Of a stretch of DNA of 64,000 bases, positions 6,823-32,523 are shown piece by piece (positions within the stretch are counted from its first letter, which is position 1; every line of letters starts with the position of its first letter). Under the pieces are notes generated by a model. It searched no databases. It was not told the origin of the DNA and saw only the letters and a list, made by a program, of their open reading frames with translations. A program made the translations under genes and the position numbers. The DNA is from a virus (Duplodnaviria; Heunggongvirae; Uroviricota; Caudoviricetes), in the IMG/VR virus record IMGVR_UViG_3300045988_145627, positions 22,146 to 86,145 of that record; one strand, given 5' to 3'.

Positions 6823-7158
6823 ATGGAGGAAAACATGTCGAACGAGATGGCGGGCGTTACAACAGAGCAAGTTGAGCGTATTGCCGCGATCGTTGCTCGG
6901 GAGGTTGTTGGCAAATTAGGTAAAGAGCTACGTGAAGAAATTGGCCAGGAGGTCAATGATCAGCTGAAAACCTACTTTGGTGATATGACCCCGGCGCAAC
7001 ATAGTATTCAACACTCCAATCTGGACAAACTCCTTAACCGGTTAGATTCCATCTCAAGTGGGTTCTTTGGCGGCATTGTTTCTAAAATAACGTCGTTCAT
7101 TATTACCGCACTGCTTTTGGGGTTAGCCGCGTATGGCGTAAAAAGTGGACTGCAATAA
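6823..7158 (+). CDS. Small membrane protein, holin candidate (single C-terminal TM helix)
   Basis: 111 aa with hydrophobic C-terminal segment ITSFIITALLLGLAAYGV; sits immediately upstream of the putative endolysin and spanin pair. Confidence 0.3.
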   Translation: MEENMSNEMAGVTTEQVERIAAIVAREVVGKLGKELREEIGQEVNDQLKTYFGDMTPAQHSIQHSNLDKLLNRLDSISSGFFGGIVSKITSFIITALLLGLAAYGVKSGLQ

Positions 7159-18088: not shown

Positions 18089-19407
18089 AAAAGTTGATCG
18101 CACTTAAGCATAAGCTGGACGAAATGAAAGCTATGGGAACCAATGCAAAAAAAGAGGCATTGGCCAACATGGATGACTTTGAACAAAGCATGGTTTCATT
18201 GATGCTCAACCCTTTCATCCGTTTTGGGGTAAAGAAATACAAAGTGGCAGAGCCGCTTAGTGAGTCCGTCCCAAGTGACGAAAAAGCCATTGATGTACTG
18301 AATAAGCTGGCCTCTCGCGAGCTGACGGGGAACGCAGCAATAGCTGCTGTTGAGTCTATCGTGGCGTCAATGTGCGCCGATGGGCAGGACGTGTTCCGTC
18401 GTTTCCTCTTAAAAGACCCGAAAGCGGGTGTTGGGATTAGCCTATGCAACAAGGTTTTTGAAAATCCCATTCCGAAATTCGAGGTGCAGCTGGCGTCACC
18501 GTATAAAGAAAAAGGCGACAAATACCCCTTCAAGCCAAACCCTAAAGCAAAATGGCCGATGATTGGCAGCCTTAAGCTCGATGGTTTGCGAGTAATTTGC
18601 GAGGTTATTGTTGACGAAGAAGAGGTTAACTTCCTTTCTCGTACTGGTAATCCAATCACGTCTCTCGATCACCTAAAGCCAGCCATGCTCGAATTAGGCA
18701 AACTTTCAGGCCACAAACACATCTTCTTCGATGGTGAAGGCACAGCCGGTTCATTTAACCAGTCCGTATCTGCATTGCGCAAAAAGAACGTGCAGGCAAT
18801 TGGCGCTATTTATCATGTTTTCGACTTCTTCCTACCGGAATGGCGAGCACAGGCTAAATCCAAAGAGTATGCAAAGACATGTATGAAGCTGAAAGAGCGC
18901 CTGGCTATGCTCGTGGCGTTGTTCAAAAACGATCGCAGTGAAGGCTACGCACAAGACATTCACCTGCATCCGTTCTACATCATCCATAGCCACGAAGACT
19001 TCATCGAACGCTTCATGAAACGCCTGGACGATAACGAAGAAGGGGAGATGGGCAAAGATCCGAACTCTGTTTACGAGTTTAAACGTACCCGCAGCTGGTG
19101 GAAGTTAAAAGACGAAGATTCAGAAGATGGTGAAATTATCGATTTTGAGCCGGGCGACCCGGACTCTGGTTTTGCCAACACGCTTGGAAAAATTGTTATT
19201 CGTCTTGAAAACGGCGTCATCGTTCGTGCGAGCGGCATTAAGCATAAATATCTGGACGAGATCTGGAACAACAAAGAGAAGTACCGTGGTCGCATTGTCG
19301 AGGTTCATTGTCACGAGAAAACACCTGATGGCAGCTTACGCCACCCACGACTGAAATGGCCGCGTTGCTTACGCGATACCGAAGATCGAATCGGAGATAA
19401 AGAATGA
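18085..19407 (+). CDS. ATP-dependent DNA ligase
   Basis: Motif I KxDG in SLKLDGLRVI; size (440 aa) and position within the replication block. Confidence 0.7.
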   Translation: MKKLIALKHKLDEMKAMGTNAKKEALANMDDFEQSMVSLMLNPFIRFGVKKYKVAEPLSESVPSDEKAIDVLNKLASRELTGNAAIAAVESIVASMCADGQDVFRRFLLKDPKAGVGISLCNKVFENPIPKFEVQLASPYKEKGDKYPFKPNPKAKWPMIGSLKLDGLRVICEVIVDEEEVNFLSRTGNPITSLDHLKPAMLELGKLSGHKHIFFDGEGTAGSFNQSVSALRKKNVQAIGAIYHVFDFFLPEWRAQAKSKEYAKTCMKLKERLAMLVALFKNDRSEGYAQDIHLHPFYIIHSHEDFIERFMKRLDDNEEGEMGKDPNSVYEFKRTRSWWKLKDEDSEDGEIIDFEPGDPDSGFANTLGKIVIRLENGVIVRASGIKHKYLDEIWNNKEKYRGRIVEVHCHEKTPDGSLRHPRLKWPRCLRDTEDRIGDKE

Positions 19408-19619
19408 TCGTATTAAGTAAACGGGAGAAAGAAACGCTTCATGAAATTAGTAAGTGGCCGGAGTTCCCTGAGTACTGGAAGCCTAAAACGCGAGCTAAGT
19501 TAGAGCGTTTAGGGTTGGTTGCAAACGTTTCTGAAACGTGGTGCTCGGCCAACTACCAGTTAACTGATAAAGGGAAATTATTGCTACAGCAATTAGTAGA
19601 ATCAAGAGCCTTTAAATGA
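19404..19619 (+). CDS. Hypothetical small protein (71 aa)
   Basis: ORF overlapping the ligase stop (ATGA). Confidence 0.3.
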   Translation: MIVLSKREKETLHEISKWPEFPEYWKPKTRAKLERLGLVANVSETWCSANYQLTDKGKLLLQQLVESRAFK

Positions 19620-19764
19620 TTCCATACATCTCATTGGCTTTTATGGCTGGCTTCCTTATCGGCTTCGGCATCTGTCGTGATTTGATTAAGCAGGAACTTA
19701 AAACCAAAACACTGTGCATCGGGAAGCGTGTGTATCGGGTAGTTCATGAAACAAAGGTGAGAAC

Positions 19765-20055
19765 ATGAGCAATTTAACTTCTTGGGACTGGTGGTTGGTA
19801 CACTATTTCTTAGCGGCCGGAGTCGCATTCGCCTTTTACGTAGGTCAGTTAGTCGTAAAACTGTTGCTGATTAAATTTGCTAGTCATAAACGTATCGATG
19901 ATGGTCTGTGGCGTCTTGGCACCCTGGTGGAAACTCGCTACGGGCAACTTAAGGAGAACGAAACCATTACTATCCAAGCGAAACGATTCACTGCCACCAT
20001 CACAAGAACACCTAGTCGTAGAGTGGCCTTGATCAAAAAAGTCACAACCGAATAA
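19765..20055 (+). CDS. Hypothetical small membrane protein (96 aa)
   Basis: Hydrophobic N-terminus WWLVHYFLAAGVAFAFYVGQLVV. Confidence 0.3.
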   Translation: MSNLTSWDWWLVHYFLAAGVAFAFYVGQLVVKLLLIKFASHKRIDDGLWRLGTLVETRYGQLKENETITIQAKRFTATITRTPSRRVALIKKVTTE

Positions 20056-20833
20056 AAACACAAAGATAAGTATTTACTTACTTATCTTTTATGTATAAGA
20101 TGACTTTGTTTTCGTTGAGACGCGACTGTTTGAACTTAAATACAAGTGCAAACGAAGAAGTCTATCTGGCAGTAGCCTAATAAGCCAAACACCAGCGAGG
20201 TCAGTTTCCAGCCTCGTTACCGAAATGGGACACACTGAGCGAGTGTGATTGCAGAACGCAGGAGGGAACATTCATGTTCCCTCCGATGAAGTAACAGAAT
20301 GGGCGGTTGGTATATTTTCAACTCCATATGACTCCCGGATTCTTAGCCACTGACCGCCCATCCTGTTACGTCATTTTGTTCAATTATGTCGTTTATACTG
20401 GGTTAAAAAGCGGCGACGTAGCCCGGCTGGTATGGTTAGCCAGCACACAACGTTGAGGCCATTACATTTTTATTAATTCTAAGGTTCTATTCACAGAGAT
20501 ACCGGCGAGCGTTGATATGTAACATGTTGGGCAAACATTCAATCGGAGTAGTGGCCTCAACGTTGTGAAGACAGGATTGTTGTGTAGGTTTAACCACTGT
20601 TGCCATTGGTGCCTGTTTTCACAACAAATGATTCCATACATCACATTGTATAAATTACAAAGTAGGTGCTGTCCTCAGAAACATCATCTACTTAAAGATT
20701 TTGCCTTCTACTATTGAGCGAAGTCGAAAGCGTCTGGCACTAACGAAAAGTGCAAGTAGCGGTGCGTTTCCTGGCAGAAACTAAACCGTCGCGATTGGCA
20801 CTGTTGAGTAATAAATACTGGCAGTGCCGAATT

Positions 20834-20908
20834 GATGGTGTAGCTCAGCGGTAGAGCAGTTGGCTGTTAACCAACTGGTCGGTGGTTCGAATCCGTTAAC
20901 CGGCACCA
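20834..20908 (+). tRNA. tRNA-like sequence, anticodon GTT (Asn); acceptor and T stems are imperfect, so possibly a pseudo-tRNA
   Basis: Canonical D-arm gctcagcggtagagc, perfect anticodon stem gttgg/ccaac with loop ctGTTaa, T-loop ttcgaat and 3' CCA; acceptor stem has 2 mismatches and T stem 3 G-U pairs. Confidence 0.4.
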
Positions 20909-21121
20909 ACACAACAGGAAAGAGCATTGAGAACCGCCGAGACTGCACTGTTTGAAGCGTAAGTCCGTGCAAACGTCATACAGTGCTCTTTTCGTTGTGG
21001 TGAATGCGGCTAAGCGCACGCGGGGAAATGGTTATATTGATCCTTTGTGATGTCTATTGGCTCCGTCCACGGTGGATAACCAGCCAAAGGACACCGGGAA
21101 GCACCCGGCACCATAACAATT

Positions 21122-21208
21122 GGAGAGTAGGGAGCATGGTGCTCAAGCGGTCTTGAAAACCGTCCCATTGCGCAAGCGATGATGGTTCGATTCCATTACT
21201 CTCCGCCA
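21122..21208 (+). tRNA. tRNA-Ser (anticodon TGA), long variable arm
   Basis: 7-bp acceptor stem ggagagt/actctcc, anticodon loop ctTGAaa, 17-nt variable arm, T-arm gatgg-ttcgatt-ccatt, discriminator G plus encoded CCA. Confidence 0.6.
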
Positions 21209-21364
21209 GACACAGCGTTGAGCGGTTTGGCCTTTTAATCAACTCGATTAAGACTCCGCTAACATAAACCAGACCGCTCAACGCTGTGATAGACAATTAC
21301 GGCAGACGTTCTTAACCATAGCTTGCTAACATCCTAGCAACACTTTTTTTCAGCGCAAAATTCA

Positions 21365-21388
21365 AAGGGGCTTCGGCCCCTTTTTTGA
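21365..21388. terminator. Bidirectional rho-independent terminator (A-run, ggggcttcggcccc, T-run)
   Basis: Perfect GC hairpin flanked by AAA and TTTTTT; lies between the tRNA cluster and the 3' end of the reverse-strand gene. Confidence 0.75.
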
Positions 21389-21403
21389 AAGCAATGGGCA
21401 AGT

Positions 21404-22738
21404 TCATGCCAAATTATCCAGATTTCTTTTCTTTTGTTCAATTATATTTCTCGCGCCAGAAAAAATTTTACTCAAAATAATTGATTTGCTTGCTCTATTA
21501 TTAAGATGTAACAACGCGCTATAAAATACATAGTTATCTATTTTACTATTTAAAGTATTCCCAAGCTTCCCGTCATATATGCTATTAATAGTATTAAAAT
21601 ATACATGTTCAGGACCTATATTACAAATACCCCTATCAACTCGCTTTAAATAATGTTTAACTAAAGAAATAGCATCTTCCTTATCATTAATAACATAAAG
21701 TCCTGAGCGTTTACCCAGTTTGCTGTTCGAGAGCAATTTACAACCTACAAGCTCACTTAACGTATCTTCAAAATTTTTCAACTCTTTGTCGGCGTTTTCC
21801 AGATAATGCTCAATCTCTTTCTCCATATTACTTATTAGAGAATTAAATTCTGCTCGTAACAAATCACCACCAGGTGATTTATAACTCCATAAAATTGAAT
21901 TGGTAATACGTACTACGTCAGATACTTCTGGTTTCTCTGAATAGTTTTTGTATCTAGTGCAAATAATGCTGTGCTTTATATATTCTCTAACTAATGATCG
22001 ATAATCCCTTTCGAAAAGGGTTTTGACATCTAGTCTTCCATTGCTTGTTGTTATTAGTGTGGTATTTAAAACTGGGTCGCCTTCAAAAAAATTATATTTA
22101 TTTAGTAATCGTTTTAGCTTGTGTGAATTATGTGATGTTTCGCCATAATAATTTAGCCCAAAAATAGCAATTATTAGCATAACATCAGGAGTGATGAAAT
22201 GTCGTAATTGCTCGGCATAAACTTTTTTCTCTTCGATTTTCGAAGATGGAGAGTAAAAACCTTTGTCTATATATTCTAATATTGAAACAATATTACTAAC
22301 ATAACGTATAAAAACTTGATTCATTACAACGGAACCATAAACCTGATGCAAATAATCTACTCTCAAGTTGTTTTTTATTTTTTCCCCTGTGCTAGATGAT
22401 AACTCTTCTTTTACCTGCCCAAGTAGCTTTTCGTGGTGCTCCAGCAATGTTTTAAACCATTGTTCAAATGATGATTTTCTTGCCTCAGTTAATGAATCTG
22501 ATGTTATCTGGACAGCTTTCATAGCTGCTTTCGCACTTTTCTTTGCTTCATAAGCGTTCCATGCTGTAGCACAAAAAGCTGCCGCCGTGATGCAACTGGT
22601 AAAAATAGAAATCCTATCTGCAACATTCAAGCTCCAGAACCAATCAGACGATGAAATCAAAACCACAGATATTACGGGAACAATGAAAATCAAAACAGGC
22701 ATGTATGTACTCGCTCTAATAGTTATTAGTCGAGGCAA
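21404..22738 (-). CDS. Hypothetical membrane-anchored protein, low-GC (444 aa)
   Basis: Two N-terminal hydrophobic helices followed by ~380 aa Lys/Asn/Tyr-rich soluble region; opposite strand to neighbours. Confidence 0.5.
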   Translation of the reverse strand: MPRLITIRASTYMPVLIFIVPVISVVLISSSDWFWSLNVADRISIFTSCITAAAFCATAWNAYEAKKSAKAAMKAVQITSDSLTEARKSSFEQWFKTLLEHHEKLLGQVKEELSSSTGEKIKNNLRVDYLHQVYGSVVMNQVFIRYVSNIVSILEYIDKGFYSPSSKIEEKKVYAEQLRHFITPDVMLIIAIFGLNYYGETSHNSHKLKRLLNKYNFFEGDPVLNTTLITTSNGRLDVKTLFERDYRSLVREYIKHSIICTRYKNYSEKPEVSDVVRITNSILWSYKSPGGDLLRAEFNSLISNMEKEIEHYLENADKELKNFEDTLSELVGCKLLSNSKLGKRSGLYVINDKEDAISLVKHYLKRVDRGICNIGPEHVYFNTINSIYDGKLGNTLNSKIDNYVFYSALLHLNNRASKSIILSKIFSGARNIIEQKKRNLDNLA

Positions 22739-22880
22739 ATATTATATAAATCTCGTTATGATTTACAGACATGTATACGTATTGCTAATTATCACCAACA
22801 AATGATAGGTGTGTACATATTTATCATTTGTTGTAAAATTAATGTATACGCTATGAATACACTAATAATATGAGGTAATC

Positions 22881-23126
22881 ATGACTATCGTTATCTACGG
22901 ACGAGATAACTGTTCATACTGCAAACGTGCGGTCGAGCTGGCGAAGCAACTAAAGGGACATGGCTACGGTGATTATGAGTACATCGACATCACCACTGCT
23001 GGTATCGACAAGGAAAAACTTAGTGAAATTGTTGGTAAACCGGTAGAGACTATCCCCCAGGTACTGATCGATGGCCAACCGATTGGCGGATACACAGAAC
23101 TGGCTGCATACGTCAGCACCCTCTGA
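22881..23126 (+). CDS. nrdH: Glutaredoxin-like protein (NrdH-type redoxin)
   Basis: 81 aa with CSYC redox motif near the N-terminus. Confidence 0.7.
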   Translation: MTIVIYGRDNCSYCKRAVELAKQLKGHGYGDYEYIDITTAGIDKEKLSEIVGKPVETIPQVLIDGQPIGGYTELAAYVSTL

Positions 23127-23131
23127 TTTTA

Positions 23132-23156
23132 ACGGCTCACAGGAGCCGTTTTTTAT
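23132..23156 (+). terminator. Rho-independent terminator
   Basis: aacggctcacaggagccgtt hairpin followed by TTTTT. Confidence 0.75.
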
Positions 23157-23206
23157 TCCCACCAAACTCACACCTGTTTCCCTTAAAATTCAAAAAACAA
23201 CATCTA

Positions 23207-23239
23207 AATGATTCCATACCTACTATGTATGGAATCATT
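23207..23239. other. Candidate recombinase core site: 13-bp inverted repeat aatgattccatac / gtatggaatcatt around a 7-bp spacer
   Basis: Perfect palindrome ~100 bp upstream of the tyrosine recombinase gene; the same 14-17-mer recurs as half-sites at 19614-19630 and 20626-20642. Confidence 0.45.
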
Positions 23240-23337
23240 ACTGAAAATGAGTTACTTTTACTCTTGATCCTATAAGAATCTATGCCTAATATACTGTTTA
23301 CTTATACAGTGCATCGGCGTAACTCGGTGATTGTCAT

Positions 23338-24441
23338 ATGAAAAATAGCTTTGACAGAGCACGCGCTGCGGAGAACACCTCAAAAGAGGCGATTGAGTAT
23401 CTCGAAAGAGCATCTCAAATGCAGGCCGTTATGATCTCCCAGGTCAGCAATGACATGAGATTCTCGGACGCATTCATGTTATTCACTCGCTTATCTCTGC
23501 TGATAACAAGACGTCGGCCAGAGATCGCTGTTCATTGTATTTTGATACATGTTTTGCCGCACATTGCCGATGTAAAAGTAAGTGATATTAATAGGTTCAT
23601 GGTGAACCAACTGGTCAACCCACTAATACTGGATGGCAAAATTGTTATGGGTCGCCGCGTTTTCTCTCTGATGAAGCAGTTCCTCAGCTGGTGCGCCTTC
23701 CAGGGGATGATCGACGTGTCACCGTTAAACGATATGTCACTTAACAAAGTTGCCGGTGGCGCAAAGCCCACACCTCGCGAGCGGAAGCTAACCGACGCAG
23801 AGGTATGGGTGTTCTGGAATATATGGGACTACTTCAATGTGTGTGCTGGTACAAAATGGGCGGCCAGGCTATGTCTTGTATCCGCAAGACGACCTGACGA
23901 AGTACTGCGGGCTAAAAAAAGTGAGTTCAACCTCCAGCGTGGGGTTTGGAATCAAGGCAAGAGAAACAAATCAGCCCGTGAGCATTCTCTGCCTTTAAGC
24001 ACATTAATGCGCACATGCATTGAAGAGTTATTCGAATATGGTAAAGGCAGCCAGTGGCTTGTGCCTTCGAATAAAAAAATCGGGAAAGATCTTCCGATGT
24101 CTAAAGTGGCAATAGCCCAGGCATTACGCCGTATCCTGGAACGACCAGAACTGATGGAGCTTGAGCCATTTACACCACGAGATTTGCGTCGTACTGCGCG
24201 TAGTTACTTCCCAGCATTAGGCATAAGCCAGGAGGTATCACGTAAAATCATGAACCACAGTCTTGAGGGGATAGATCGGGTCTACGACCGGCACGATTAT
24301 ATGGACGAGATGCGAGACGCCTTAGAAAGTTTCTCGACGTACATCGCATCAATCGTAGAGCAACCGGATTTAGACGAAATTGACCACAAATTCAAGGGAG
24401 ATCGTCTATCGACAGAGCTTATTCGTGTAAATTTTTCATAG
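23338..24441 (+). CDS. int: Tyrosine recombinase / integrase
   Basis: C-terminal catalytic boxes LVSARRPDEV, FTPRDLRRTARS, NHSLEGIDRVYDRHDYMDE (R..H-x-x-R..Y pattern). Confidence 0.75.
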   Translation: MKNSFDRARAAENTSKEAIEYLERASQMQAVMISQVSNDMRFSDAFMLFTRLSLLITRRRPEIAVHCILIHVLPHIADVKVSDINRFMVNQLVNPLILDGKIVMGRRVFSLMKQFLSWCAFQGMIDVSPLNDMSLNKVAGGAKPTPRERKLTDAEVWVFWNIWDYFNVCAGTKWAARLCLVSARRPDEVLRAKKSEFNLQRGVWNQGKRNKSAREHSLPLSTLMRTCIEELFEYGKGSQWLVPSNKKIGKDLPMSKVAIAQALRRILERPELMELEPFTPRDLRRTARSYFPALGISQEVSRKIMNHSLEGIDRVYDRHDYMDEMRDALESFSTYIASIVEQPDLDEIDHKFKGDRLSTELIRVNFS

Positions 24442-24822
24442 AGACTTTATGGCCTCAACAACCTTTTGTGATGCGCCTTTCTCTTTACCGAATCGCTCGT
24501 TATATGCAGCAAGAACCTGTTTTTCGTCCTCGTTAAGAGGAGCAGTGCCTTCTTTGTATAAAAATGCTGCGAGTTCGGGTTGGCGTTCTTCCAGCACCAT
24601 CATCATAAGACGACTTGGCTCAATACCCAGTGCCAGCGCCAGCGGACGAACCTTATCGATAGGCAAAGGAATTTTGCCGCTTTTAATTAAAGAAAGGTTG
24701 TTGGCGTTTTTATACCCAATTGTTTTGGCTATCTGGGCCTGGCTCATAGGTGAGGATTCAATCAACCCTGCGATAAAAGCAGCGTAGCGACTTTCTATAA
24801 ATTCAATCTTGTTGTCAGACAT
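24436..24822 (-). CDS. Helix-turn-helix transcriptional regulator (XRE/Cro-CI type)
   Basis: HTH segment SQAQIAKTIGYKNANNLSLIKSGK; 128 aa; convergent with int and divergent from a small + strand ORF. Confidence 0.65.
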   Translation of the reverse strand: MSDNKIEFIESRYAAFIAGLIESSPMSQAQIAKTIGYKNANNLSLIKSGKIPLPIDKVRPLALALGIEPSRLMMMVLEERQPELAAFLYKEGTAPLNEDEKQVLAAYNERFGKEKGASQKVVEAIKSL

Positions 24823-25073
24823 TGTTACAACCTTTGCGCGTTCAATTCTCTCTGGTAAGTGCTTACCGATATTACATCAAAGGTTAGGGTTGTAAAGCTA
24901 TTATCATTTTTTTCGGCAGGCACTTTAAAGACCGGACAAAGACCAATGCATGGTGAAAAACTAGCCCCAAATAGGTAAGAAAATTAACTTGCATCTAATA
25001 TGGATGTATTCAGTATTGATATAAATTTTAGTAGTATTCCTTACAATAGTATAAGTAAGAATGGATTGATTGA

Positions 25074-25286
25074 ATGAACACCACTATTTCCAGCCTAATA
25101 GCTCTTGAGATCGGACACGTACAAAAATTAGCTGATGAGTGTGTAGCTGACATCCTCACCGAGCTACCGAATGAGCAGATTGAGGTTGGTGTGAATGACA
25201 CAACTGGCTTTATATTCGAACTTAACAACAAACGCTTCACGCTTATCAATACCGGCTCCGGGTCTTTAGCCGTCAGAACCTGTTAA
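25074..25286 (+). CDS. Hypothetical small protein (70 aa), divergent from the HTH regulator
   Basis: ORF only; upstream intergenic region carries a GGTAAGTGCTTACC palindrome. Confidence 0.3.
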   Translation: MNTTISSLIALEIGHVQKLADECVADILTELPNEQIEVGVNDTTGFIFELNNKRFTLINTGSGSLAVRTC

Positions 25287-25384
25287 TCCCTCTTCTACCT
25301 GCGCGAATGGCTTAGTTCCCTGTTCGCGCAGTGCTACATTAAACACACTAGTAAATAATTTGTTTTCATAACAAAGGATTAGCC

Positions 25385-27493
25385 ATGTCCAAAAAACGTT
25401 CCATCAAAGAGGTTCAGGACTTCCGTGACAGTGTAAAACGAGTAGTCGCTCTCCTTTCAGGTAAAAACATCCCTGTTGCAGAACGAGGGGACGACGCTTA
25501 TGTACGCTATAACGATGATGGAGAGCCAATTCTCGTAAACATCCCATCAATCCCAGATAACGCAACACCGGCATTGATGAATGCAGTACGCGGATTTCTA
25601 GATCATGAAGTTGCTCACATTTTGTTTACCGATATTCATGTGTCCAACAAAATGAGAGAAAAAGGACACGTCCCTTCCTGGTCACTATGGAATGCCTTAG
25701 AAGACGTGTTCATCGAGCGAAAAATGGGGCAGGTCTTTAACGGAACAAGACGTAATCTGATGGCAACTCAGCGCCTGATAATCGAAAAAGTCTTTAAACC
25801 AAAGGCTTCAGAGGCTATTACTTATTGTGGCAAAGATCAGCGCGCGCTTTTTCTAAACTTCTTTCTCTGTCCGGTTGTAAGAGCCTGGGATGGCCAAGCA
25901 CCGTTCGTAGATTTCATGGATGAATACTGGCCTGTCATTGAGAAACCAATTTCATTATTAAAAGAACATGGTATCGATGTGGCCGTGCGTAACATGTCTT
26001 GCACGGAGGATTGTTTAAAGGTGGCTGCGACCATAGCTAAGATCCTCAAAGACACAGAAAGTGAAAGCAAAGGTAAGGAGTCAGCTCCGGGAAAAACTCC
26101 CGATCCTTCAGACGCTGACCAAGCGGATTCCTCTGGAGAAAGTAATGAAGACAATGAAGATCACAAGACACATGAGATGCTAGATAATCACATATCTATA
26201 GATGATGAGTCACACGGTAAGTACATACATGATGATAACGATAGTGATGATTCAGATAATTCTGAATCATCAGAAACAATATTCGATGATACAAAAAATG
26301 ATAAAGAGGTATTAGATTCTGATACTTCCAATAGCGCGACGACAGAAGCAACTACCTCGGATCACGAAAAAAGAAAAACGGCAGAAGACGGCTCTTCAGA
26401 CATTCCCACTCCGTCCAAAATGAGTCTGGAAGAGGCTTTAGAGGAGCTTGATAGCATGGAAGATGAAGTCGGAGGCATGACAGAAGATGCACTATCCGAA
26501 ACGATTAAAAGCGAGTTAACAGAAAGCTCGAAAAGCGAATACAGGCCATACAATCGCTCATACGACTTCATCGGTTCGATTGATCAGGCAGAAGCCCATA
26601 TCAAACGGCTTATTAAAACATTCTCCGATATTGATTTAGGTGGATATCCAATCAGCCGTTATCGCATCGTTCCTGAAGGCAACCAACTCTTCGACAAATA
26701 TATTGAAAAGCATCTTTCGTCAGGTGTTTCGTCGACGCTGGCAAAAGACCTGGAGCGTGCAATTGCAAGCAGAAACAGAGTTCAGTTTATACCGGGCCAG
26801 CGTCGGGGGCGCATTCATGGTTCTAGTATCTACAGATTAGCAATGAATGATGATCGCGTGTTTCGTAAAAAAGAAGAATCTAAGGCCGTTAACGCCTGTG
26901 TTCAACAAGTGATTGATTTATCAGGTTCAATGAGCGGCGAAACGATTAAACTGGCTCTTGCAAGTGCATATACCATCGCCGATGCGCTTGATCGAATAAA
27001 TGTTCCCAACATTATCACCGGCTTCACAACATTTGGTAGTCATATGGCAGCAGGAGAGCTTAAGGCAATCAAGTATGAGTTCTCTCGCTTTGAATCTTTA
27101 ATGCTACCTATCATCAAAAATTGGAATGAAAAGGCAAATTCTCGCGAAGTTCGCTCACGTATGGGGTGCGTAGGCTACACATTCCCACTTCTTAATAACG
27201 TGGATGGTGAAAGCATAGCCAGCCTTGCATCGTTATTTTCTGGTCGCATGGAGGACAAGAAGATCATGCTTGTTCTAAGCGATGGCGCGCCGTGGGCTGT
27301 TGGGAGAGGTTTTGACGCTCATTTGCGTTCGGTTGCGAAGCAAATTGAAACGCAGACTGACATTGATTTGATGGCAATTGGCATCATGACTGACGCACCG
27401 GAGAGATTTTACGCAAACCATGCCCTAGTAACGAGCGTTGATAGTCTTGGTTCATCTGTAGTTACTGAACTATCTCGTATCATTTTGAAGTGA
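25385..27493 (+). CDS. von Willebrand factor A (vWA) domain protein with N-terminal HExxH motif and acidic low-complexity linker (CobT-like)
   Basis: HEVAH at aa ~74; C-terminal MIDAS-like DLSGSMSG plus LVLSDGAPW; Asp/Ser/Glu-rich central region. Confidence 0.6.
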   Translation: MSKKRSIKEVQDFRDSVKRVVALLSGKNIPVAERGDDAYVRYNDDGEPILVNIPSIPDNATPALMNAVRGFLDHEVAHILFTDIHVSNKMREKGHVPSWSLWNALEDVFIERKMGQVFNGTRRNLMATQRLIIEKVFKPKASEAITYCGKDQRALFLNFFLCPVVRAWDGQAPFVDFMDEYWPVIEKPISLLKEHGIDVAVRNMSCTEDCLKVAATIAKILKDTESESKGKESAPGKTPDPSDADQADSSGESNEDNEDHKTHEMLDNHISIDDESHGKYIHDDNDSDDSDNSESSETIFDDTKNDKEVLDSDTSNSATTEATTSDHEKRKTAEDGSSDIPTPSKMSLEEALEELDSMEDEVGGMTEDALSETIKSELTESSKSEYRPYNRSYDFIGSIDQAEAHIKRLIKTFSDIDLGGYPISRYRIVPEGNQLFDKYIEKHLSSGVSSTLAKDLERAIASRNRVQFIPGQRRGRIHGSSIYRLAMNDDRVFRKKEESKAVNACVQQVIDLSGSMSGETIKLALASAYTIADALDRINVPNIITGFTTFGSHMAAGELKAIKYEFSRFESLMLPIIKNWNEKANSREVRSRMGCVGYTFPLLNNVDGESIASLASLFSGRMEDKKIMLVLSDGAPWAVGRGFDAHLRSVAKQIETQTDIDLMAIGIMTDAPERFYANHALVTSVDSLGSSVVTELSRIILK

Positions 27494-28826: not shown

Positions 28827-29030
28827 GTGCGTAAAGGATGTTTCGGCTCTCTTATCGCTGCTTCTGAAACTGGCAAGGCTTGCCTGGTGTGTCCAGACAA
28901 GCCCGATTGTCACCAATCAGCAAAAGAAGTTGCGATTTCGATGTATGGGAAGTTCGTAGGCTTCCCCAATGACAAAATCAAAAAAACCAGAAAGGTAAAA
29001 ACACATGAAGGCTCTGATGGTTCGAACTGA
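28827..29030 (+). CDS. Possible small Cys-rich protein (67 aa), overlaps the dnaE start
   Basis: ORF only (CLVCPDKPDC). Confidence 0.2.
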   Translation: MRKGCFGSLIAASETGKACLVCPDKPDCHQSAKEVAISMYGKFVGFPNDKIKKTRKVKTHEGSDGSN

Positions 29031-32000
29031 CTTCTCTCTTGGGGAGTCGGCTCTAAAAGCAGAAAACGCGGTGAAGATTGCCAGAGAAGCTGGCTACACC
29101 GCTGTAATTTCGGCAGATAGCATGAATATTGCGAGTGTTATTCCACTACAACGTGCCGCTGGTGACGACATGGCGGTTATTTGTGGTGTGAAACTAAACA
29201 TTGTTGATGATCCCACATACGAGCACCGGGCTAAACTTGCTAAAGAGTCTATGGGATGTATGGAATCATTAGAGCGTGGGCGGAACTACTCCTTTACCGC
29301 TCTAATTAAAAATGAGCAGGGATATCGAGACATCTGCGAACTAATGACGGCGGCCAACACACGAGAACAGTTCTACTTTGTACCGCGTCTCTCGCTCGAA
29401 CAGTTGGTTTCTACATATGCCAAAGGCAACATCATCCTGCTCACTGCCGACATCGGTAGCGTGTTCCAACGCAACGATTTTGCAAAAATCATAAGCTCAC
29501 TGATTACAGCGGGTGGAAAAGACAACTTCTATAGTGTGGTTTATCCGCACCCTACCCCATTCTACGACCAGATTAACGTCCGGGCGATGAAAGTCGCCAG
29601 CGCACTGAAAATAGAGCCAGTAGCGTTCTATCCCGCTTATTACGAATCGATCGACGATGCAGACATTAAAGACATTGCGCACATGGTTACGAACAACATC
29701 AAAATCGACCAGCCGCATCGTCTGCGTATCCCCCACCAGCGAGATAACGCCGTCAATGGTCGCCGCCATCTCCTTGAGGCGCTGAAAGCCTTCTCCGTTC
29801 GCATGGATGTGCCGGTAACAGCTGCAATGGCCTCAACAACGCAGGATACCATTATCGATGCCTGCACATGGCGCTGGCATGAATTGCCACCAGCACTGCC
29901 AAAGATGGCAGACGACGAGCCTGCAACGCTGATGAAACTGGCCGTTGCTGGGCTGCGTAAACGTCTTACCACAAAAGAGTTTGGCTACACACCACCGGCT
30001 TCTGAGAACAGGGTTTATGTTGAGCGACTTAAGTACGAAATGGACACGCTTACTCGCCTGGGATTTTGTGGTTACTTCCTGATGGTACGCGATCTGATGA
30101 ATCACAGCCGTGAAACTGGCATTCCTGTCGGGCCTGGTCGTGGTTCCTCCGCTGGCTCTTTGGTGGCATGGTGCATAGGCATAACCAACGTCGACCCTAT
30201 CCGTCACGGTCTTCTGTTTGAACGTTTCATCAACCCTGAGCGTCTCGACTTGCCAGATGCGGACTTGGACTTCAGCCAGGCACGTCGCCATGAGGTGATC
30301 GAGTATCTGAATGAACGCTACGGCGAAGATTACGTTGCAGGCATTCCGAACTTCACCTACCTGGGCGCGGCCTCTGCACTACGTGACACCGCTCGTATTT
30401 ATGGTGTGGAGTCCGCAGATATGGCGGTATCAAAAGAACTGAAGAACGTCGAGGATGATAGCCTTCCATTGGAAGAGCTGCGCGAACAACTGGCAAGCCT
30501 CGACAAATACGCGACAAAATATCCTGATGCATTCAATGCAGCCTGCAAGTTACAAAGCCTTATGCGTGGCTATGGTAGACATGCGGCAGGGATGATCGTA
30601 GCAGGTGTTCCTCTGACAGAACGAACACCGGTTGAACGACGTGGTGACGCGCGTTGTATCGCATTTGACAAGCGTTACTGCGAGGCTATGGGCCTAATTA
30701 AGCTGGACGTACTTGGCCTGGCGACTCTCGATTTGCTCGATAGTGCAAAACGCTACATTAAAGAGAACACAGGTGAGGATATCAATCTTGATGCCATTTC
30801 TCTTGAAGATCGCAAGGTGCTGGATGGTTTTGCTGCTGGGTACACTCAAGGTGTTTTCCAGCTTGAATCAGGCCCAATGCGCAAGCTGCTTAAAGATTTA
30901 GGTGGTGGAATTGAGCCAATGAGCTTTAAAACGGTCGTTGCTACGACTGCGCTCTTCCGGCCGGGGCCAATTCAGTCAGGCATGTTGGATGATTATGTTT
31001 CTGTCGCCAAAGGCTTTATGACGCCGGAATCATTACACCCCGTTCTTGATGAACTTACCGCAGAAACAAATGGCGTGATTCTTTATCAGGAACAGACGAT
31101 GAACGCGACTCGATTGCTTGCGGGCTTCACAATGGCTGAAGCTGACGGCGTTCGTAAAGCGATCGGCAAAAAAGACATGGAGAAAATGAAGAGCATGGGT
31201 GAGAAGTTCATCGTTCAGGCTCAAGCTGGCTGGATAGACGTTGAGCTGGAAGATTGCACTACACAGCGCATTCACCGTGCGGAACATTTTAAATGCGAAG
31301 ACGGAACACTGAAAACTGTCGAAGAGGCGCTTGAACACGGCGCAAAACTACCTATAAACGCAGTACGCGTGACAGCGTCACACCCAGGGCTATCAGAGAT
31401 GAAAGCGAAGGAGATCTGGACCGCATTCGAAAAAAATGGTGCCTACCAGTTCAACAAATCACACTCTGTTGCTTACTCCTTGATCAGTTATCAATCTATG
31501 TGGTTGAAAACTCATTATCCCGCAGAGTTTTTCGCTGCTGCTCTCACTATTCTTGGCGAAGATAAACACCAGGGGCTGGTTAAAGATGCGCTGACCTATG
31601 GTATTCGCGTATTGCCACCAGACGTTAACGTGTCATCCAACCGAATCGAGATCCGCACGCTTGAAGATGGCAGCCAGGTGCTGTATGCGCCCTTCTCTGC
31701 TGTGAAGGGGTGTTCTGAGAATGGCTGCCAAGCCATCATGAGAGCGCGAGAAAAAGTTGGCGGCAAATTCGAGTCACTGGCGCAATTCGAAGAAGCTGTC
31801 GAGAAACGTGCCTGTAATAGTCGAGTGCGCGAATCGCTGCAAAAAGTAGGGGCGTTTGCATCCATCGAGCCAGGTAGTCTGCCAGCAACTGATCCAGAGC
31901 GCCTACGCGACCAGGCTGAATTGATGGGAAACCTTGTCATAGACGCAGTTAAAGCCTCACGTCCGTTTGAGATGAACCCCAAACGTTCGGCTGAGATTAA

Positions 32001-32523
32001 CGTGCTCATGACACGGATGGCGGCTGAAATGGGCTTAGGTGATGAACTAATCCGCCCCAGCATTGGTATTAAGCCGAAAATCATGATCATTCTGGACAAT
32101 GCGAACGGCAATGATGCTCGAACCGGTTACTTTATGGAGAACGGATACGACGATTTTAAGGCCAAGCTATTGACGGCTGGAGATTTACGCATGGGCGATC
32201 TCTATGTCACAGGCGTTTGCAAGAAGGTTAAAGACAAAGAAAAAGACTACACCAAAGACGAGATCGGCCAGTTCACCGACTTTATGCGTGAAGAGATCAA
32301 TCTGGTGCGTCCAACCTATGTGCTGACGTGTGGCAGCCGGGCGACATCGCTCTTCAACAACAAGAGCAAACCATCCGACCTGGTTGGACGCAAAGAGTAT
32401 CTGCCGGAGCTGGATGTGACTGTTTTCTACGGATTTAACCCGAATATTTTGTACTTTCACCCAGAGGAAGGCGAAAAGCTGGAAGCAATTCTTGCAGAGG
32501 TAGCGGAGACTATTAGCAAATGA
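29005..32523 (+). CDS. dnaE: DNA polymerase III alpha subunit (DnaE-type replicative polymerase)
   Basis: 1172 aa; N-terminal PHP-like region, catalytic-core motifs GPGRGSSAGSLVAWCIGIT and ILYQEQTM; conserved GGTAAAAACACATG start context. Confidence 0.85.
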   Translation: MKALMVRTDFSLGESALKAENAVKIAREAGYTAVISADSMNIASVIPLQRAAGDDMAVICGVKLNIVDDPTYEHRAKLAKESMGCMESLERGRNYSFTALIKNEQGYRDICELMTAANTREQFYFVPRLSLEQLVSTYAKGNIILLTADIGSVFQRNDFAKIISSLITAGGKDNFYSVVYPHPTPFYDQINVRAMKVASALKIEPVAFYPAYYESIDDADIKDIAHMVTNNIKIDQPHRLRIPHQRDNAVNGRRHLLEALKAFSVRMDVPVTAAMASTTQDTIIDACTWRWHELPPALPKMADDEPATLMKLAVAGLRKRLTTKEFGYTPPASENRVYVERLKYEMDTLTRLGFCGYFLMVRDLMNHSRETGIPVGPGRGSSAGSLVAWCIGITNVDPIRHGLLFERFINPERLDLPDADLDFSQARRHEVIEYLNERYGEDYVAGIPNFTYLGAASALRDTARIYGVESADMAVSKELKNVEDDSLPLEELREQLASLDKYATKYPDAFNAACKLQSLMRGYGRHAAGMIVAGVPLTERTPVERRGDARCIAFDKRYCEAMGLIKLDVLGLATLDLLDSAKRYIKENTGEDINLDAISLEDRKVLDGFAAGYTQGVFQLESGPMRKLLKDLGGGIEPMSFKTVVATTALFRPGPIQSGMLDDYVSVAKGFMTPESLHPVLDELTAETNGVILYQEQTMNATRLLAGFTMAEADGVRKAIGKKDMEKMKSMGEKFIVQAQAGWIDVELEDCTTQRIHRAEHFKCEDGTLKTVEEALEHGAKLPINAVRVTASHPGLSEMKAKEIWTAFEKNGAYQFNKSHSVAYSLISYQSMWLKTHYPAEFFAAALTILGEDKHQGLVKDALTYGIRVLPPDVNVSSNRIEIRTLEDGSQVLYAPFSAVKGCSENGCQAIMRAREKVGGKFESLAQFEEAVEKRACNSRVRESLQKVGAFASIEPGSLPATDPERLRDQAELMGNLVIDAVKASRPFEMNPKRSAEINVLMTRMAAEMGLGDELIRPSIGIKPKIMIILDNANGNDARTGYFMENGYDDFKAKLLTAGDLRMGDLYVTGVCKKVKDKEKDYTKDEIGQFTDFMREEINLVRPTYVLTCGSRATSLFNNKSKPSDLVGRKEYLPELDVTVFYGFNPNILYFHPEEGEKLEAILAEVAETISK

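Follow-up and report, generated by a model that had tools for sequence, protein, structure and literature searches.

What does a perfect inverted repeat do just upstream of a tyrosine recombinase gene (int) in a phage-plasmid, and why does one arm of that repeat recur, singly, at several places on both sides of it? The question is raised by a stretch of 64,000 nucleotides (nt) from a virus of the Caudoviricetes (IMG/VR record IMGVR_UViG_3300045988_145627, positions 22,146 to 86,145; hereafter the window), which its sequence matches place among the phage-plasmids of the SSU5/pHCM2/pMT1 type. We propose that the repeat would be the crossover site of the recombinase, Int, that its role would be the resolution of plasmid multimers, and that the single arms (half-sites) would be extra binding sites for the same protein; to this explanation as a whole we assign a probability of roughly 0.65. 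The comparison draws on approximately 150 related loci gathered from GenBank phages, IMG/VR, GTDB genomes, and protein-indexed assemblies, and the figures for the palindrome upstream of int rest on approximately 170 non-redundant contexts.

The palindrome upstream of int and its probable recombinase

The first-pass annotation, made from the letters of the window, had described a 13-bp inverted repeat around a 7-bp spacer about 100 bp upstream of int and had taken it for a tyrosine recombinase core site. The repeat is exact and ends 98 bp before the ATG of int (Table 1), and the conserved core of each arm is its inner 11 bp, TGATTCCATAC. Among the related contexts, the palindrome lies 39–107 bp upstream of int, once per contig and always with a spacer of 7 bp, the sequence of which takes about 27 forms across the relatives. 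Wherever Int is at least 56% identical to that of the window, neither arm varies in its inner 11 bp, while nearby intergenic DNA falls to ~70–75% identity. At 40–50% Int identity (Xenorhabdus, Providencia, Erwinia, Pantoea, and Rahnella), both arms read TGACTCCAGAC at the same place and with the same geometry, a sequence that differs from TGATTCCATAC at two positions, changed on both sides. The two arm classes segregate completely with Int identity, with one intermediate. A Photorhabdus element carries hybrid, mutually mismatched arms (TGACTCCAGAT and TGATTCCAGAC), the retention of which argues for recognition by a protein rather than pairing in a hairpin. Three solitary int genes, each with its palindrome, lie in a setting of metabolic genes: one on an Erwinia contig of 106 kb, one on a Pantoea replicon of 507 kb, and one on a Rahnella replicon of 722 kb. 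None of the three has phage genes or a helix-turn-helix (HTH) repressor nearby; because these genes keep the palindrome and the arms co-vary with Int, the site travels with int. The constant place and geometry, the co-variation of arms with enzyme, and the variable spacer all back the earlier assignment as a core site, and on this comparative evidence the palindrome is very likely the target of Int. No description of this target site, or of the integrase sites of SSU5, pMT1, and pHCM2, was found in the searchable literature.

Pfam assigns Int to Phage_integrase (PF00589; 6e-10) and Phage_int_M and identifies no other domain, and the catalytic residues R185, K211, R284/R285, H307, and Y316 are invariant or nearly so in an alignment of 36 sequences. 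In the AlphaFold2 model (predicted local distance difference test, pLDDT, of 85.9), the N-terminal half is all-helical, without a beta-sheet arm-binding domain, and neither Pfam nor the modelled N-terminus contains the arm-binding domain PF13356/DUF4102 that characterizes the P4-type integrases found as homologues at 26–34% identity. In fold, Int is most similar to lambda Int (E 4e-8), Tn1549 Int, XerH, and IntI. Sequence and model together indicate that Int is a lambda/P4-branch enzyme that appears to have become a simple recombinase of two domains. Lambda-type core sites typically have an overlap of 7 bp, and for that reason the 7-bp spacer fits the lambda/P4 ancestry of Int. Membership of the Cre-type family was considered and rejected: Int has no match among Protein Data Bank (PDB) sequences, Cre appears in the fold search at rank 41 and lower with E 0.02 or worse, and the spacer is 7 bp, not 8. 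The candidate int promoter (Table 1) falls below the threshold of the promoter scan and was read from the sequence.

Close relatives carry the same spacer in both orientations relative to int, as CTACTAT in 49 cases and ATAGTAG in 1, and as CTATTAA in 37 and TTAATAG in 2. Should spacer identity be required here as it is in other tyrosine recombinases, the different spacers would make the sites of different lineages mutually inert. One of the inverted cases is the Escherichia phage-plasmid PhiR41_1 (L003 8001–8033), in which the spacer is ATAGTAG rather than CTACTAT and the palindrome is longer, extending to 17 bp; its whole ligase-to-glutaredoxin region has been exchanged for other cargo, and at 2112–2127 a half-site with the ATC described below stands in a novel sequence context.

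Role of the site in the phage-plasmid

Integration and dimer resolution had been proposed side by side; the second is the part of that claim favored here, while the first finds no support. The int-plus-site segment is present in 252 of 5,426 complete E. coli genomes, at 255 places (three records have two), every one of them plasmid and none (0/255) chromosomal. In PLSDB, int and its site are found in 836 plasmids, 801 of which are non-mobilizable, and the matches include 63 Yersinia pestis plasmids and the 106.7-kb plasmids of Salmonella enterica. The exact palindrome of the window type occurs in only 7 stretches among 185,579 GTDB representative genomes, always with both arms intact, six on contigs of 12–113 kb and one on a 169-kb Chimaeribacter contig; an Int-like sequence was noted beside the site in three, none is typed as phage-plasmid, and no attB or attL/attR-like single-arm junction was found among them. 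Replicons with two full sites were absent from the IMG/VR contigs, and no arm-type repeats were found near the full site.

In the proposed mechanism, two Int monomers would occupy the two 11–13-bp arms of the palindrome, two such Int-bound sites would synapse, and strand exchange would take place across the 7-bp spacer, following the course known from other simple tyrosine recombinases. Int would thereby convert plasmid multimers to monomers and might also circularize infecting DNA, as Cre-loxP does for P1. Multimer resolution is the best-supported role because each replicon has a single intact site, Int lacks an arm-binding domain, and the element lives strictly as a plasmid, and by analogy with such systems we consider it probable.

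Two other functions of the palindrome were weighed against this one. That it is the core of an attP at which Int integrates the element into the host chromosome would suit an enzyme of the lambda/P4 branch, where 7-bp overlaps are usual, and the arm has GATTCCAT in common with the T-arm of the element's own tRNA-Ser; set against the absence of any chromosomal place in E. coli, the two-armed state of all seven GTDB palindromes, and the lack of both an arm-binding domain and arm-type repeats, this is very unlikely. Chromosomal integration of pFra is said to occur; no open paper on it was found. A purely structural role as a hairpin terminator or cruciform is hardly credible: the 13-bp stem would be stable and follows the glutaredoxin gene (grx), but that gene already has a separate GC-rich terminator with a T-run (23131–23150), no T-run follows the palindrome, and the upstream genes and their orientation vary among relatives. 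Moreover, the arms are invariant, not freely compensated, across lineages whose flanks are ~70% identical, and those of the Photorhabdus element are kept although they mismatch each other. The multimer-resolution role accordingly remains the one that we prefer for the palindrome.

As an observation in its own right, the stretch shared with tRNA-Ser (21122–21208) lies in the T-arm sequence GGTTCGATTCCATTAC, a coincidence with a chance of roughly p = 0.02. P4-type integrases commonly target tRNA T-arms; the recombinase arm might descend from such a target, or the same GATTCCAT in both may be due to chance.

Dispersed half-sites around int

The 13-mer AATGATTCCATAC occurs five times in the window: at 19615(+), at 20627(+), at 23207(+) and 23227(−) as the palindrome, and at 29258(−). 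The three copies reported by the first-pass annotation (19614–19630, 20626–20642, and 23206–23220) are all where it placed them, the first two being identical across 17 nt and at 22 of 23 nt. It had overlooked the exact 13-mer at 29258–29270 (−), inside the DNA polymerase III alpha gene (pol; 29005–32523), and a decayed copy inside int. When the 14-mer was searched with up to 2 mismatches, 5 matches were obtained against 0.70 expected, a number that none of 100 shuffles reached. The other 44.7 kb of the complete close relative CP053388 contain no copy at ≤2 mismatches, and all copies therefore fall within one ~10-kb stretch around int in a genome of ~108 kb.

Over all loci, 366 non-palindromic occurrences of the exact core were collected, a total in which contigs fetched with overlap count more than once. 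Their positions define four classes (site 1, site 2, int-internal, and pol), plus the one oddity in PhiR41_1. The core is directly followed by ATC in 332 of the 366, and no full-site spacer starts with ATC. The left two half-sites are on the plus strand and the right two on the minus strand, so that all point to the palindrome, which with four sites is a pattern of about 1 in 8 and is not relied on here. Lineages with half-sites all have a palindrome of the matching arm type. Across lineages, neither a second, degenerate arm beside the half-sites nor any adjacent sequence beyond the ATC is conserved.

Table 1. Features of the locus, with positions in the window unless a locus is named
Feature	Position	Strand	Description
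int	23338..24441	+	367-amino-acid (aa) tyrosine recombinase, core-binding and catalytic domains
Full recombination site (predicted)	23207..23239	.	Perfect 13-bp inverted repeat, 7-bp spacer
Left arm of full site	23207-23219		AATGATTCCATAC
Spacer of full site	23220-23226		CTACTAT
Right arm of full site	23227-23239		GTATGGAATCATT
Half-site 1	19615..19630	+	AATGATTCCATAC then ATC
Half-site 2	20627..20642	+	AATGATTCCATAC then ATC; conserved non-coding DNA
Half-site 3, decayed	23944..23956	-	CTTGATTCCAAAC; inside int, codons VWNQ
Half-site 4	29255..29270	-	AATGATTCCATAC then ATC; codons 84-89 (GCMESL) of DNA polymerase III alpha gene
Possible int promoter	23264..23292	+	TTGATC, 17 nt, TAATAT; 25 bp downstream of palindrome
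Variable cargo region	20894..23206	.	Between tRNA-Asn 3' end and left edge of palindrome
Inverted repeat with ACACARCGTTGAG	20447-20462 with 20553-20568
Inverted repeat with ACACARCGTTGAG	21211-21231 with 21270-21290
Two-ORF (open reading frame) polymerase, L164	15864-19463
Two-ORF polymerase, L171	15421-19024
Two-ORF polymerase, L082	15636-19259

The half-site in pol is, from the sequence comparison, the clearest apparent case of selection on the DNA. Its 13-mer does not change among 75 unique pol sequences, which share 79–100% identity with that of the window and vary at 93% of third codon positions, and the 5-codon window over it is the second lowest of 696 in third-position variation. It lies in a hypervariable loop of the polymerase whose flanking residues vary freely, and the homologous loop is unrelated in lineages without the half-site (Xenorhabdus, Providencia, and L082). 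In one relative (L142, ~6935–6975), a tandem duplication of 9 bp, ATACATCTC, sits exactly on the inner boundary of this half-site and lengthens pol by three codons. It may stem from slippage during replication across an ATA...ATA repeat that was already there, or it may be a footprint left by recombinase action.

Half-site 2 lies ~1012 bp from half-site 1 and precedes tRNA-Asn by ~190 bp; its position and spacing are kept in ~70 loci, and it and its ATC are conserved while the flanks diverge. Half-site 1 overlaps both the stop codon of a 71-aa gene (19404–19619) and the start of a conserved 50-aa ORF (19616–19768, MIPYI...); the lineages of E. coli, Klebsiella, Salmonella, and Nissabacter all have it at this position. 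The suggestion that the motif merely reflects three small genes with a common MIPY start fails, as only the ORF at site 1 is conserved, that at site 2 ends after 6 codons in SSU5, and the fourth half-site is antisense in pol. Half-site 3 is intact in Salmonella, Yersinia, and Klebsiella lineages, where the exact 11-mer core cTTGATTCCATAC is followed by ATC or ATT; since it overlaps the invariant Trp W204 of Int, its conservation is partly at the protein level. The half-sites would have arisen within one phage-plasmid clade and would be kept there by selection on the DNA itself, for an accessory, architectural, or regulatory function.

The first-pass annotation had offered the outlying copies as arm-type sites or as secondary recombination targets, and neither proposal held up. 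The half-sites repeat the core arm itself, identical over 13 nt, and Int is without an arm-binding domain. The junctions predicted for inversion between site 1 and pol, inversion between site 2 and pol, and deletion between site 2 and the palindrome were built and searched for in all complete E. coli genomes, and joined junctions were found in 0 of the ~219 E. coli plasmids that carry both halves. The order and orientation of the copies are the same in all ~150 loci, and inversion between copies would break pol or int. From these sequence data the half-sites are regarded as putative binding sites, not crossover sites. That they are nonetheless recombination substrates, either single-arm sites like those of the Rci shufflon (sfx) or integron-like cassette boundaries, is highly unlikely. 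Rci acts on asymmetric sites (PMC11852207); the left and right half-sites are mutually inverted; in Cyrano, site 1 and the pol site have 20 identical bases in common, the 7-bp 'spacer' included; and variable cargo lies between the half-sites and int. The missing junctions, the constant order, and the destructive outcome of inversion speak against such a function, as do the lack of conservation past the ATC and the limits of the cargo, which is bounded by the tRNA-Asn 3' end and the palindrome, not by half-sites. An integron-like capture platform was likewise rejected, on the basis of these cargo boundaries and of there being no sites between cargo genes.

As for the protein that binds them, Int is the most economical candidate, because the half-sites are identical to its arms over 13 nt, and judging from the sequence we think it reasonably likely that Int binds the single arms at 19615(+), 20627(+), and 29258(−) and the decayed one at 23944(−) as extra sites. 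A more far-reaching version, in which the active Int doubles as an architectural or regulatory protein on these distant arms, all oriented toward the crossover site, one placed in the coding sequence of the replicative polymerase and one in int itself, organizing or regulating the replication and cargo region by, for example, looping, roadblocking, or autoregulation, and in which the private 7-bp spacers form an incompatibility-avoidance code between co-resident phage-plasmids, is advanced tentatively and is rather unlikely to hold in full.

Two further explanations dispense with binding by Int, and we consider each improbable. In one, all copies would be operators of another transcription factor, either the HTH repressor encoded at 24436–24822 or the 71-aa protein, in the manner of P1 C1, which has scattered asymmetric single operators plus one bivalent palindromic site. 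The layout of dispersed asymmetric copies plus one palindrome resembles that arrangement, the constant ATC is missing from the full sites, half-sites persist in SSU5, where int is lost, and the 71-aa gene borders half-site 1 directly and is found together with the half-sites. Yet the palindrome stands beside solitary int genes on plasmids that lack the repressor as well as the 71-aa gene, no copy of the motif occurs in the promoter region of the repressor itself (24823–25073), the motif is unchanged where the repressor is down to 56% identity, the arm class tracks Int, a single deletion took both int and the repressor from SSU5, and 13-7-13 is the geometry of a recombinase site. The neighboring HTH repressor is thus itself an unlikely binder of the half-sites. 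As to placement relative to promoters, two copies are antisense inside genes, site 1 is at a start codon within an operon, and site 2 lies upstream of the tRNAs, where no promoter is conserved across lineages. The other explanation holds that the half-sites are functionless, as relics of ancestry or by-products of coding (MIPYI, VWNQ, CMESL); site 1 and the int-internal copy do overlap conserved peptides, K. michiganensis keeps MIPYI while its DNA motif drifts, the int-internal copy is decayed in the window, and whole clades are without half-sites. However, the synonymous positions of the pol copy are all fixed in a hypervariable loop, the non-coding site 2 is conserved with its ATC between diverging flanks, and a chance origin of five exact 13-mers is excluded. 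A host Tus/Ter motif was rejected, the core having no match, by eye, to the Ter consensus.

Binding of Int to both the palindrome and the half-sites thus remains our preferred explanation, and several observations weigh against it. The constant ATC of the half-sites, absent from the full sites, could indicate a different or additional binding protein, although it also leaves room for a distinct monomer-binding mode. The multimer-resolution role is inferred from lifestyle and analogy, and no binding or recombination experiment on the Int family was found in the searchable literature. Because half-site 1 and the int-internal copy overlap the conserved peptides MIPYI and VWNQ, they are conserved only partly at the DNA level; in Klebsiella michiganensis it is the MIPYI peptide that is kept and the DNA motif that has drifted. 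The TGACTCCAGAC clade has no half-sites of either type within 10 kb, and the half-sites are therefore a clade-specific addition that the recombinase system does not require. Finally, SSU5 and one IMG/VR relative (L091) lack the palindrome and int yet keep the half-sites. The persistence in SSU5 says little, because the deletion of int is recent: the N-terminus of its polymerase is 100% identical to those of int-bearing relatives. Both genomes also lack the HTH repressor. In L091 the loss (5603/5604, compared with 3411–5610 of L089) is a single 2.2-kb deletion without flanking repeats, and in SSU5 (L085, NC_018843; 15498–15663) the deletion has other end-points and also removes the region upstream of the palindrome. 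The loss of int, palindrome, and repressor may explain the behavior of SSU5, which we take to be a lytic phage, its close relatives being plasmid prophages.

The promoter region between the divergent HTH repressor gene and a 70-aa ORF (24823–25073) contains an imperfect inverted repeat, GTATTCCTTAC ... GTAAGAATGGA (~25029–25066). Relatives keep this repeat, which differs from the recombinase motif and is a candidate operator of the repressor.

Related systems and the surrounding region

The arrangement most resembles Cre-loxP of P1 (Austin et al. 1981, as cited in PMC10879196): both elements are plasmid prophages with a single palindromic site of 13-bp arms adjoining the gene of a recombinase without an accessory domain, and the expected role is multimer resolution or cyclization. 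It differs in the length of the spacer (7 bp compared with 8 bp) and in the fold of the enzyme, which matches Cre at E ~0.02 compared with 4e-8 for lambda Int; furthermore, P1 is not known to carry half-lox sites that are dispersed and conserved. Lambda Int and the P4-type integrases are closest in fold and are distant sequence relatives, and they share the 7-bp overlap between inverted core-type arms; unlike them, the system described here has no N-terminal arm-binding domain, no second class of arm-type sites, and no chromosomal attB, and its arms are perfect and long (11–13 bp). XerCD at dif, cer, and psi shares the multimer-resolution role and the single site per replicon, but Xer proteins are host enzymes that act on asymmetric 11-6(8)-11 sites with accessory proteins or FtsK, whereas here the enzyme is self-encoded and the site symmetric.

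Extra single copies of a recombinase's crossover motif are known from TnpI/IRS of Tn4430 (DR1/DR2), the third repeat of FRT, and integron attI (DR1/DR2), in all of which they lie within tens of base pairs of the core. The half-sites described here are 0.7–6 kb from the core, flank it left and right, lie within coding sequence in two cases, and all have their ATC. In the Rci/sfx shufflon, too, a tyrosine recombinase acts with a spacer of 7 bp, and only one arm of each site is sequence-specific (PMC11852207); the shufflon differs in that no inversions were detected here, a symmetric full site is present, and the half-site spacers are unconserved past the ATC. In SPbeta, MrpR (YopR) is a phage repressor of recombinase fold that acts on several dispersed copies of one element and has lost the recombinase function (PMC10516654). 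MrpR/YopR and SroF of phi3T are both among the fold matches of Int, and they resemble it in pairing a tyrosine-recombinase fold with dispersed copies of one element in a phage genome; in contrast to MrpR, Int keeps all catalytic residues and a crossover-type site, and a separate HTH repressor is encoded next door.

As read from the sequence comparisons, the recombinase-site pair would be new but of a known kind, and the unusual part would be the dispersed core-type half-sites under DNA-level selection, including one inside an essential gene, where such selection appears to override codon choice. These half-sites offer a cheap entry to the question of whether recombinases hold second jobs as DNA-binding regulators. 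At least 836 sequenced plasmids carry the recombinase with its site, among them pMT1 of Y. pestis, Salmonella plasmids, and many phage-plasmids of Klebsiella, Enterobacter, and E. coli, and a defined site would provide a testable maintenance function for this major group. Phage-plasmids of the latter three hosts can carry resistance genes (PMC9600943). Two natural specificity classes and many spacer variants of a compact 13-7-13 system are possible orthogonal tools for genome engineering.

The closest matches of the region are the Escherichia phage-plasmids CMS-2020a (97%), Cyrano of E. coli LF82, and PhiR41_1, followed at greater distance by Klebsiella phage-plasmids and by Salmonella phage SSU5. 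Locally, the genes for helicase, primase, and ligase come first, then small ORFs, tRNA-Asn, tRNA-Ser, an AT-rich AbiC-like ORF, glutaredoxin, and int; after int come the HTH repressor, which is convergent, CobT/CobS-like genes, and pol. The palindrome also marks the boundary of an exchange of moron and defense cargo: homology blocks to ~80 relatives stop at 20894–20913 and restart at 23202–23207, and in many E. coli plasmids the match begins at query positions 56–58, which correspond to window positions 23205–23207 at the outer edge of the left arm. In the window, this slot holds tRNA-Ser, glutaredoxin (22881–23126), and the AbiC-like ORF (21404–22738, minus strand), which encodes 444 aa and has a weak Pfam match (putative abortive infection). 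Cyrano has a different ORF directly upstream of the palindrome, CYRAN_43, listed in a table of prophage morons with the value 723, the top one for Cyrano (PMC9928086).

The window encodes the polymerase in a single ORF of 1172 aa; the lineages of Nissabacter, K. michiganensis, and L082 have two adjacent ORFs instead, of ~785 and ~389 aa. An Rfam scan of 19000–25500 identified the two tRNAs only, plus a sub-threshold STnc100-like match at 20976–21144 (43.4 bits compared with a gathering score of 47). The conserved non-coding DNA around the tRNAs (20060–20830 and 21210–21295) contains long inverted repeats with the common motif ACACARCGTTGAG, and these repeats and the STnc100-like match may represent structured RNAs or processing signals.

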